A stretch of DNA of 12,979 bases, from positions 1 to 12,979 of IMG/VR virus record IMGVR_UViG_2778261447_000015; one strand, 5' to 3'. Source of the DNA: a virus (lineage: Duplodnaviria > Heunggongvirae > Uroviricota > Caudoviricetes). Of the stretch, positions 1,369 through 12,979 are shown piece by piece. Every line of letters starts with the position of its first letter. Positions within the stretch are counted from its first letter, which is position 1. Made by a program: the position numbers and the translations under genes. The notes beneath the pieces are model-generated. The model was not told the origin of the DNA. It did not search any database and saw only the letters and a list, made by a program, of their open reading frames with translations.

Positions 1369-1444
1369 GCCGATATAGCTCAGTTGGTAGAGCAGCGCAT
1401 TCGTAATGCGAAGGTCGTAGGTTCGACTCCTATTATCGGCACCA
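1369..1444 (+). tRNA. thrW: tRNA-Thr (anticodon CGT), thrW-type
   Basis: 76 nt with acceptor stem GCCGATA/TATCGGC, D-loop AGCTCAGTTGGTAGAGC, anticodon loop TTCGTAA, T-arm GGTTCGACTCC, discriminator A and encoded CCA. A phage integrase gene starts 15 bp downstream. Confidence 0.92.
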
Positions 1445-1458
1445 TTTAAATCAATAAG

Positions 1459-2619
1459 TTACCTCGCATTTAAGTAAACTACGTTCTCCTCTTGTGCCGT
1501 ATTTGTGTCATTGCGACTTATAATCGCATCGATTTTGCTCGCGTGCTCGGTGAGATGCCCGGCTGAAAGGTGGGCGTATCTTTGAACCATTTCGAGAGTT
1601 TCCCATCCTCCCATCTCTTTAAGTGCAAGAAGAGAGACACCGGACTGAACCAGCCAGCTTGCCCAGGTATGCCTCAGGTCATGGAAGCGGAAGTTGCTAA
1701 TGCCTGCTCGCTTTAACGCTCCCTTCCATGCCTTGTTGCTGTCGGTTCTCATCTTCCTTACCGCTGCTGTTTTTGTTCCGTCGCTTCGGTAGGCAGGTTT
1801 GGTGTGGACAAACACCCATCTCTTATGGAGACCCTGCTGTTTTCTTAATATCTGGCATGCGGTTTCGTTAAGAGGAACTCCGATCGCATTGCCAGCTTTT
1901 GTTTCATCAGGGTGCATCCATGCCATTTTCTTATCCAGATCGACCTGTGACCACTCAAGGTCTGTAACGTTGGAACGGCGAAGGCCTGTCGTGATTGCAA
2001 ACATGACCACAGGGAAGAAATGAGGAGCAATTTCTGCAAACAGGCGCTTCGATTCCTCCTCTGTAAGCCATCTGATTCGTCCATTCTTAACGCGTGGTGT
2101 TGATATTTTGGGCGCCCTGTCAAGCCATCCCCATTCAACAGCCATATTGAGAATAGCGCGAAGTATTGCCAGATGCCGCGTCTTCGTTCCTTTGCTTGCC
2201 AGCTTTGGTTTATACTCCGGCACTGGCTTGCCAAGCCGCAAACACCTGTCCCGGCTCATCTCCCAGTTCAGGCGATGGCGGCGGTTTTCCATCCCGTCTA
2301 CCGCCTCCATTATTTTTTCTGTTGTTATGTCAGAGAGAATGGTTTCTCTGAAGTGCAACATCCAGAACGATATAATGCTCTTGTCATCATCAATGGACTT
2401 CTTATCCGATTTCTCACGCAGCCACCGTATGCAGGCTTCCTTGAATAGCTTTTTCGGTGATTCTCCGAGATTTTTTACTCTCCACGCTTCTGCTTTCAGA
2501 CGATCGTGAAGTTCTTGCGCTTGCCTCTTGTCCGATGTTTCAAGAGAGCGTCTAACTCTTGATCCATCTGGCGCGACGAAATCGCAGTGCCACGTGCCAC
2601 CGCGTAGTTTGATTGACAT
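1459..2619 (-). CDS. int: phage tyrosine integrase (P22/lambda Int family)
   Basis: 386 aa with C-terminal catalytic region motifs (…FRFHDLRHTWASWLVQSGV…LKEMGGWETLEMVQRYAHL). ATG at 2619 is preceded by AGGAGG at 7 nt spacing. It sits next to the tRNA and resembles P22 Int by recall. Confidence 0.9.
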   Translation of the reverse strand: MSIKLRGGTWHCDFVAPDGSRVRRSLETSDKRQAQELHDRLKAEAWRVKNLGESPKKLFKEACIRWLREKSDKKSIDDDKSIISFWMLHFRETILSDITTEKIMEAVDGMENRRHRLNWEMSRDRCLRLGKPVPEYKPKLASKGTKTRHLAILRAILNMAVEWGWLDRAPKISTPRVKNGRIRWLTEEESKRLFAEIAPHFFPVVMFAITTGLRRSNVTDLEWSQVDLDKKMAWMHPDETKAGNAIGVPLNETACQILRKQQGLHKRWVFVHTKPAYRSDGTKTAAVRKMRTDSNKAWKGALKRAGISNFRFHDLRHTWASWLVQSGVSLLALKEMGGWETLEMVQRYAHLSAGHLTEHASKIDAIISRNDTNTAQEENVVYLNAR

Positions 2620-9057: not shown

Positions 9058-9368
9058 GTTGACCTCCGATGAAACAACTTTGGAATTGATAGTGATTGCA
9101 AAGTGGTTTCTGGCCCCTCGAACTGAGGGGCAGAAAGAGCATCTCGCCACCTAATAGGTCGATGCTCGGATCGAGAGATTTAATTAACCTCGGTTTTGAA
9201 GTTATGCATTCACATAAATCCTCCTGTTGCATGTGCAGCATTGGCTGTGTTTGGCAGCTGCATTTCGCCTATGGAATTGACTTTGGCGGTGACGCGCCGG
9301 GTGCTTATCTTCAGGTTGCCGTCGTGCAGCTGCACTTCACGTCACCCCAAAGCCAACTACTCTTTGGT

Positions 9369-9409
9369 TCCCGCATTTCGGCGGGACAATCCCATCAATG
9401 TTAAAGAGC
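9369..9409 (-). promoter_or_regulatory. nutL (boxA GCTCTTTAAC plus boxB hairpin)
   Basis: Minus-strand boxA GCTCTTTAAC (9409..9400) and boxB TCCCGCCGAAATGCGGGA (9386..9369). Both are identical to the elements found downstream of cro, and they lie between PL and N. Confidence 0.7.
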
Positions 9410-9455
9410 CTGCCAATCTGTTCCGTTTGGCTTCCAGCGTCCTGCTGATGGCTAA

Positions 9456-9497
9456 AGAATACTGTAGGTATTTTATTGTGTAAATACCCAAGGTATT
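9456..9497 (-). promoter_or_regulatory. OL operators and PL promoter
   Basis: Two 15 bp sites, AATACTGTAGGTATT (9458..9472) and AATACCCAAGGTATT (9483..9497), 25 bp centre to centre. On the minus strand, -35 TTTACA (9484..9479) and -10 TATTCT (9461..9456) are separated by 17 nt and overlap the operators. Confidence 0.6.
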
Positions 9498-9629
9498 TAT
9501 TTTTGGTGAAATAATGATAAGCAAATGAATACAAAGGATATTTATTTTTTTCGGTGTCTGCTTGTTCAGTGCTTTTTATGCGGGATATGTGAAGTGGATC
9601 CCGATAGCTATTGCTGCCGGGATTATGAG

Positions 9630-11732: not shown

Positions 11733-12680
11733 ATGAGCAATACAGCAAAAATCTACGATTTCAGCGCCGCACACGAGCGCAGGAGCAACAGGATGGAGAA
11801 CCAGAAAACTGGTTACATTCCGTTGTACCGGAGCATTCTGAAACAGTCATGGGCGAAAGATGTTTATCTTCGCACCCTGTGGGAAAACCTTCTCCTGAAT
11901 GCCGCCAGAAAGCCATACAAAGCGAATTTCAAAGGTCATGAATGGCATCTGCAACCCGGTCAACTGGTTGTGACAGCAGCTGATTTAGGTCTTCAGTTAT
12001 GCGACAGGCATGGCAAGCCGGCAAGCCGTGATCAGGTTGAGCGGATGCTTCAGGTTTTTGTGAAAGAGGGGATGATCTCCATTGACGGAGAGAAGCAAAA
12101 AGGTCGTGTGATCACCATCACAAATTACCATGAATATGCTCAAAAAATGGACAATTTACCCGCACATGAAGCCGCACAAACAAACGCACATGATGCCGCA
12201 CATGACGAAGCCAGTAATGGCGCGGCTTTCAGCGTACGTGCCGCACATGAAAGCGCACATGAAGCCGCACAAACAACCGCACATCATGAACAAGAAGGTA
12301 TTAACAAGAATATAAATAATACCCCCCTACCCCCCAATGGGGGAGGCGATGGGCAGGTTAAACCTGAACGTCGCAAGGCAGAACGAATCGACTACGAATC
12401 CTTCCTGAACGCCTACAACACCGAAGTCGGTGACAGACTGCCACATGCTGTTGCGGTCAACGAGAAACGCAAACGTCGCCTGAAGAAAATCATCCCGCAA
12501 CTGAAAACGCCAAACGTGGACGGTTTCAGAGCGTATGTCAGGGCGTTTGTGCATCAGGCCAAGCCGTTTTACTTCGGAGACAACGACACGGGCTGGACGG
12601 CAGATTTTGATTACCTGCTGAGGGAAGATTCGTTAACGGGAGTTCGGGAAGGGAAGTTTGCAGACAGGGGGATTGCATGA
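11733..12680 (+). CDS. replication initiator protein (O-like) with internal origin
   Basis: 315 aa in the O position. The central region encodes AHE/AHD repeats from DNA iterons, followed by an AT-rich segment. Its stop overlaps the helicase start (ATGA). Confidence 0.7.
12159..12326. repeat. candidate replication origin: CGCACATGA-type iterons plus AT-rich tract
   Basis: About six copies of (C)CGCACATGA and two copies of GCCGCACAAACAA between 12159 and 12292, then AT-rich AGGTATTAACAAGAATATAAATAATAC, all inside the initiator gene. This is the lambda ori-in-O arrangement. Confidence 0.6.
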
Positions 12681-12979
12681 GACAGGATATCGAAGCGAGC
12701 GTTATCGGTGGTCTGCTGATTGGTGGATTAACTCCAACCGCCAGTGACGTTCTGGCAACGCTTGAGCCGGAAGCGTTTTCAATTCCGCTCTACAGGAAAG
12801 CTTTCGAAGTTATCCGTAAGCAGGCGAGAAACAGAAACCTAATCGATGCGCTGATGGTTGCCGAGGCGTGCGGAGAGGAGCATTTCACGTCAATCCTGAT
12901 GACCAGCAAAAACTGCCCGAGTGCCGCAAACCTGAAGGGATATGCCGGAATGAACCGCCCCGGGAATCCTGGAGACTAA
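12677..12979 (+). pseudogene. DnaB-family replicative helicase, N-terminal 100 codons only, apparently cut by an IS insertion
   Basis: DnaB N-terminal domain motifs ([10 protein letters not shown]…, …[10 protein letters not shown]) are followed by a non-DnaB tail ([10 protein letters not shown]) and TAA at the last window base. The tail is encoded by sequence resembling an IS3-family terminal repeat. Confidence 0.55.
12951..12979. mobile_element. probable terminal inverted repeat of an IS3-family element (IS629-like), partial at window edge
   Basis: TGAACCGCCCCGGGAATCCTGGAGACTAA matches my recollection of the IS629/IS1203 left end. It begins exactly where the helicase reading frame diverges from DnaB. 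The element body is outside the window. Confidence 0.5.

Follow-up and report, generated by a model that had tools for sequence, protein, structure and literature searches.

Insertion of an IS is an ordinary, well-known way of crippling prophages, and insertions of the IS629 lineage into prophages are well documented as generating diversity among strains of Escherichia coli. The isoforms of IS629 include IS1203, IS1203v and IS3411, and in O157 genomes 62% of the IS629 sites, that is, most of them, lie in prophages (PMC3271280). The element generates target duplications of 3-4 bp, which were found to match at only 21 of 47 sites in O157 genomes (PMC3271280). In Stx prophages (PA2 vs. PA8), insertions of IS629 are described as altering the behaviour of the prophage depending on the place of insertion (PMC10810198); these insertions lie elsewhere in Stx phages, whereas the target described here is the helicase gene of a non-Stx lambdoid prophage located beside thrW.

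The closest relatives of this target are helicases of 458 aa found in many E. coli prophages and in Escherichia phage JEP4 (record of 39 kb, submitted as the genome of a phage), whose helicase is 99.8% identical to the intact reference. Members of this JEP4-type family are about 31% identical to the P22-type gp12 and 36% identical to P1 Ban, and their gene follows an O gene, the stop codon of one overlapping the start codon of the other. The orthologous helicase of the Stx2a-converting phage Stx2_522 (LC616068; locus L008, 1001-3394) is encoded by a single ORF of 797 aa, in which the GMGK (Walker A) motif is immediately followed by an in-frame insert of ca. 340 aa that looks like a DnaB intein.

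In the window (the whole stretch of 12,979 nt that was analysed), the order of the O and helicase genes is that of the JEP4-type family, and the first 92 codons of the helicase gene are those of family members (97-99% nucleotide identity). In contrast to the JEP4-type helicase, however, the window copy has eight IS-encoded residues after residue 92, and residues 93-458 are missing.

Prophage context and truncation of the helicase gene

The left part of the window, the replication region and the junction comprise the following features:

1-1254: proA, the start codon of which forms the left edge of the window
1369-1444, plus strand: tRNA-Thr(CGT), at the boundary between chromosome and prophage (ARAGORN, Rfam)
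1459-2619, minus strand: prophage integrase, a full-length ORF of 386 aa at the left end of the prophage (matching genomes and phage mEpX2 carry the annotation 'site-specific integrase')
11793-12680, plus strand: O-like replication initiator of 295 aa, apparently intact (PF04492 Phage_rep_O, E = 3.3e-15)
12160-12330, no strand assigned: within the O gene, iteron-like CCGCACATGA repeats with an A+T-rich stretch after them, a putative phage origin (repeat search and direct reading)
12677-12952, plus strand: 5' fragment of a prophage gene for a DnaB-like replicative helicase, codons 1-92, native (97-99% nucleotide identity to genes for 458-aa 'replicative DNA helicase' proteins in 694 E. coli genomes)
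12951-12975, plus strand: left terminal inverted repeat (IRL, 25 nt) of an IS3-family element of the IS629 lineage (24/25 to the annotated VT2-Sakai IRL; 25/25 to 1310-bp copies)
12953-12979, plus strand: IS-encoded tail of the ORF, NRPGNPGD and a TAA stop codon at 12977-12979 (translation; intact genes diverge here, reading GTCGCGGATAAC)

The tRNA-Thr(CGT) gene would be the attachment site of the prophage, the integrase ORF lying 15 nt past it. The early region is of the lambdoid type, with genes for Abc2, SSB, a Rad52/Erf-type recombinase, Kil, CIII, an N-like protein, an S24-type repressor, Cro and CII, and parts of the region share 96-98% identity with deposited phage genomes, among them mEpX2 and HF4s. 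Upstream of the IS, every gene appears as a full-length ORF. A stretch of ca. 570 nt (9058-9629), located between the gene for the N-like protein and a 122-aa ORF beside the repressor, holds no called gene. Inside the O-like gene, whose stop codon overlaps the start of the helicase gene, about eight repeats of the CCGCACATGA/CGCACAAACAA type (12160-12300) encode a repetitive AAHE/AAQT peptide and are followed by the A+T-rich sequence AAGAAGGTATTAACAAGAATATAAATAATA. Taken together, the repeats and the A+T-rich stretch look like an origin of the lambda type, apparently intact.

The helicase ORF (12677-12979, plus strand) has 100 codons, starts with MRQDIE and ends with the TAA codon at 12977-12979, that is, with the last bases of the window, as had been stated in the original prediction. 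A megablast search of 5,426 complete E. coli genomes with the query 12679-12979 rendered matches in 911 records, 696 of which showed a single match covering at least 80% of the query. Among the matches listed, identity was 97-99%, and all of them ended at base 274 of the query, corresponding to 12952 in the window, none being longer; the genes under the helicase matches are annotated as 'replicative DNA helicase'. The similarity to intact 458-aa prophage helicases spans from 12679 to exactly 12952. Past this point, intact genes read GTCGCGGAT (..GYAGM-VADNYH) and the window reads AACCGCCCC. Side by side, the intact gene of locus L002 (458 aa) runs ...GGATATGCCGGAATG GTCGCGGATAAC, encoding GYAGM VADNYH, where the window has ...GGAATG AACCGCCCCGGG; the uninterrupted helicase allele across the insertion point is GGAATGGTCGCGG.

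Since megablast identity to the intact helicases stops at 12952, the foreign tail consists of NRPGNPGD and the stop codon. The two bases at 12951-12952 (TG) belong to both sequences: they close the Met92 codon and also form the TG terminus of the IS. Gly91 and Met92 are native helicase residues. The original prediction had placed the switch right after ...SAANLKGYA, but the identity reaching 12952 puts it after Met92, two residues later. The first 92 amino acids are identical to those of P0130, a partial helicase with native sequence past Met92. Because the window starts at the ATG of proA and ends at the stop codon of the truncated ORF, its edges were set by gene boundaries and not by the end of a contig.

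In the 100-aa product, the DnaB N-terminal domain (PF00772) was detected by Pfam at residues 3-91 (E = 2.4e-13), and the C-terminal RecA-type ATPase domain with the Walker motifs (PF03796) is absent. The DnaB_C/AAA ATPase domain occupies residues 171-423 of an intact homologue (Pfam). The ORF encodes therefore no motor domain, as Pfam finds only the DnaB N-terminal residues 3-91. That the helicase is disrupted, as first proposed, is thus confirmed: the gene is truncated at codon 92 of 458, and the whole DnaB_C/ATPase domain is lost.

Identity of the inserted element

The 29-mer at 12951-12979, TGAACCGCCCCGGGAATCCTGGAGACTAA, is identical (29/29) to the left end of 1310-bp elements of the IS3 family belonging to the IS629/IS1203/IS3411 lineage. 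Its IRL is found with 25/25 identity in the 1310-bp copies of loci L001 (1802-3111) and L029 (1601-2910), and with 24/25 identity in the annotated IRL of IS629 in the VT2-Sakai prophage of E. coli O157:H7 Sakai (AP000422; locus L004, 1501-1525), to which the whole 29-mer matches at 28/29 positions. When up to 3 mismatches were allowed, the first 25 nt were found once in the window and in none of 200 shuffled versions of it, which, together with the matches to annotated IS ends, excludes a chance match. A full-text literature search for the sequence of the inverted repeat found no paper.

The 30-mer at 12950-12979 has 11,072 exact matches, spread over chromosomes and plasmids of 3,001 of the 5,426 complete E. 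coli genomes, and its copies adjoin genes annotated as IS3 family transposase. In locus L001, 54 nt separate it from the downstream 'IS3 family transposase' gene, which is in two parts with a programmed frameshift, and the element spans 1310 bp from TGAACC... to ...GGTTCA, with imperfectly inverted ends. The joining of orfA and orfB by a programmed -1 frameshift is annotated in copies with the same end. In VT2-Sakai, the same position carries the annotations 'insertion sequence: IS629' and 'inverted repeat from left end of IS629', and this copy is flanked by CTTT on both sides; in phage Stx2 II, IS1203v, of the same lineage as the window element, is annotated at the same end. The exact match to the left terminus of annotated copies bears out the original reading of the tail as an IS3-family terminal repeat, the left end of IS629/IS1203. 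Far from lacking a match to any IS end, the outcome that had been named as contrary to that reading, the 29-mer has thousands of exact copies beside IS3-family transposases.

An exact look-up of the 100-aa product rendered a single contig, NOCS01000053.1 (35,446 nt), from the draft assembly GCA_002549495.1. The window corresponds to positions 22399-35377 of this contig, its last 10,303 bases being identical to the retrieved part of it. The contig runs 69 nt past the window (ACTCCCTGAGAAAGAGGTAAACAGAATGACTAAAAATACTCGTTTTTCCCCCGAAGTCCGTCAGAGGGC) and then ends. These 69 nt are IS sequence through the first 14 codons of orfA (MTKNTRFSPEVRQR). Extension beyond 12979, which had been suggested as a check, leads therefore into the start of orfA, and what these 69 nt hold is IS sequence rather than an intact DnaB-like ORF continuing in another frame.

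The visible part of the IS amounts to 98 nt, with 1 difference from the L001 copy and 3 from the Sakai IS629 (95/98). With the latter it shares the TG start and the start of orfA; it differs from it at IS position 14, G in the window vs. A in Sakai, and at two further positions within the first 98 nt. The 98-mer was matched exactly in 220 E. coli records. The element in the window begins with TG at 12951-12952, the window and the source contig both stopping short of its right end; full copies carrying the 98-mer end in CA. One of them, the L029 copy (1310 bp, TG...CA ends), is 99.5% identical to the L001 copy and 94.7% identical to the Sakai IS629 over 1310 bp. Judged from its sequence, the element is a member of the IS629 lineage of the IS3 family. 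It would be an isoform rather than the Sakai IS629 itself, because full copies with the exact 98 nt are only 94.7% identical to the latter; 98 nt cannot tell IS629, IS1203 and IS3411 apart. At IS position 54 (locus L003, 10328), two bases before the ATG of orfA, an A is found instead of a G (AACAGAATG vs. AACAGGATG). This variant is common to the 220 E. coli records with the exact sequence, several of them in plasmid nikB genes, and marks therefore a sub-lineage of the element.

In genomes carrying the element, its copy number has a median of 3 and reaches 50. Short-read assemblies usually break ca. 100 nt inside a multi-copy element, and here the repetition of the element within the genome explains why the contig stops 98 nt inside the IS. 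The end of the contig reflects here the IS repeat, and not the end of the prophage.

Simple insertion and alternative readings of the junction

It is very probable that the DnaB-like helicase gene of a lambdoid prophage has been interrupted through transposition of a 1310-bp IS of the IS629/IS1203/IS3411 lineage. The prophage resides beside tRNA-Thr(CGT), downstream of proA, in a chromosome of the E. coli type. The left end of the IS starts at 12951, within codon 92, and the element points in the same direction as the helicase gene. The reading frame runs 8 codons into the inverted repeat and meets a TAA codon, which gives a product of 100 aa with only the N-terminal domain. In the sequence of events that we propose, the complete IS would be present, with the 3' part of the helicase gene beyond it, and after induction the replication of prophage DNA would be blocked unless a helicase were supplied in trans. 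The full-length upstream ORFs and the 92 unmutated codons fit a recent insertion into a functional-looking early region.

A simple insertion predicts, on the far side, the right end of the IS (...CCAGGAAACCCGGGGCGGTTCA) followed by (G)GAATGGTCGCGGATAAC..., that is, a duplication of 3-4 bp, GAA or GGAA, and the rest of the helicase gene. Exact-pattern scans of the genome and metagenome collections for this right junction, with a duplication of 2-5 nt, rendered no match, and a search of a set of 5.8 billion proteins with helicase residues 93-458 did not recover the 3' fragment from GCA_002549495.1. Two proteins, P0010 and P0011, the only C-terminal fragments at 99% identity, were considered as the far side and discarded, since they are contig-end partials from other assemblies.

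The missing far side is also what would be seen if an IS-mediated deletion or rearrangement had taken place, so that the sequence beyond the IS would be other than the 3' part of the helicase gene and the prophage would be a truncated remnant, with the helicase destroyed all the same. Rearranged IS629 junctions are indeed common, given that matching target duplications were found at 21 of the 47 IS629 copies in O157 genomes (PMC3271280), and most carrier genomes hold several copies of the element (median 3, up to 50). On the other hand, the genes from the integrase to O all appear as full-length ORFs and no mutation is seen in the 92 helicase codons, as would fit a simple event of recent date, and we regard such a rearrangement as unlikely. 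Much less likely still is a solo IS end, consisting of the left end and the start of orfA with no complete element. The 98 visible nt are all that is seen of the IS, and annotations of E. coli commonly include partial transposase pseudogenes of the IS3 family, but full 1310-bp copies have exactly the same 98 nt, and a contig ending inside the IS is what is expected for a multi-copy repeat.

An error of the assembly, in which the join between helicase and IS would be chimeric and the true genome would carry an intact helicase gene, should also be considered, as the assembly is a draft made from short reads and its contig ends 98 nt past the join. However, the join coincides exactly with the TG terminus of the element, which transposition predicts and a random chimera does not, and no more than 2 nt (TG) are common to the helicase gene and the IS at this point, so that there is no shared sequence to mislead the assembler. 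A chimera is accordingly given very little credit, and the transposition of a 1310-bp IS into the helicase gene is retained as the preferred reading.

This particular insertion allele was seen nowhere else in the collections searched: the left junction was absent from the 5,426 complete E. coli genomes (megablast), and from the species-representative genomes, IMG/VR and the JGI metagenomes (exact-pattern scans). The allele is probably strain-specific and recent. The protein cluster of the 100-aa product contains contig-end partial helicases from 58 aa upwards, many of them of 89-93 aa, and the many contigs from other samples that end there could suggest an insertion hotspot at helicase codons 89-93. 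This was rejected as a selection bias; the contigs of the 89-93 aa partials end in native sequence, at scattered positions and without IS sequence. E. coli AH21A060, whose helicase is annotated as an N-terminal fragment, was likewise discarded as an instance of the same event, because it carries a different disruption. In this strain (NZ_CP196291; locus L007, 3999-7082), the helicase gene is split into three pseudogene pieces, followed by a gene for an HNH endonuclease.

In two ENA metagenome contigs, ERZ27280462 (locus L023, 632-660) and ERZ28615126 (locus L024, 604-632), the same helicase gene shows a change of GCCGGAATG to GCATGAATG. It creates a stop at codon 91, and the next called ORF starts at Met92, the codon that holds the IS in the window. 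The break at codon 91/92 in these contigs may be a coincidence, or this may be a spot that tolerates a break.

Consequences for the prophage

The exact junction with the IS end leaves the O initiator and the iteron-like repeats apparently intact upstream and removes the C-terminal domain from this ORF. From its sequence, the ORF in the window is a helicase fragment and would not be a functional member of the DnaB-like family. The IS lies in the same orientation as the helicase gene, and if the insertion were simple, the duplication of 3-4 bp would regenerate the Met92 codon on the far side, with no in-frame fusion of this codon to the transposase. DnaB fragments that lack the N-terminal collar are not expected to act as helicases.

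A reversible 'grounding' of the prophage could also be envisaged, in which precise excision of the IS would restore the helicase gene, because a 3-4 bp duplication would regenerate the Met92 codon, and the free 100-aa N-terminal domain, or a 92-458 fragment translated separately, could interfere with replication in related phages that enter the cell; we consider this idea highly improbable.

From what is known of phage DnaB-type helicases, the prophage would be replication-defective. It is probably unable to replicate on its own, and a second prophage in the same genome could supply the helicase. In annotation, the 100-aa ORF corresponds to a helicase pseudogene disrupted by an IS629-type element.
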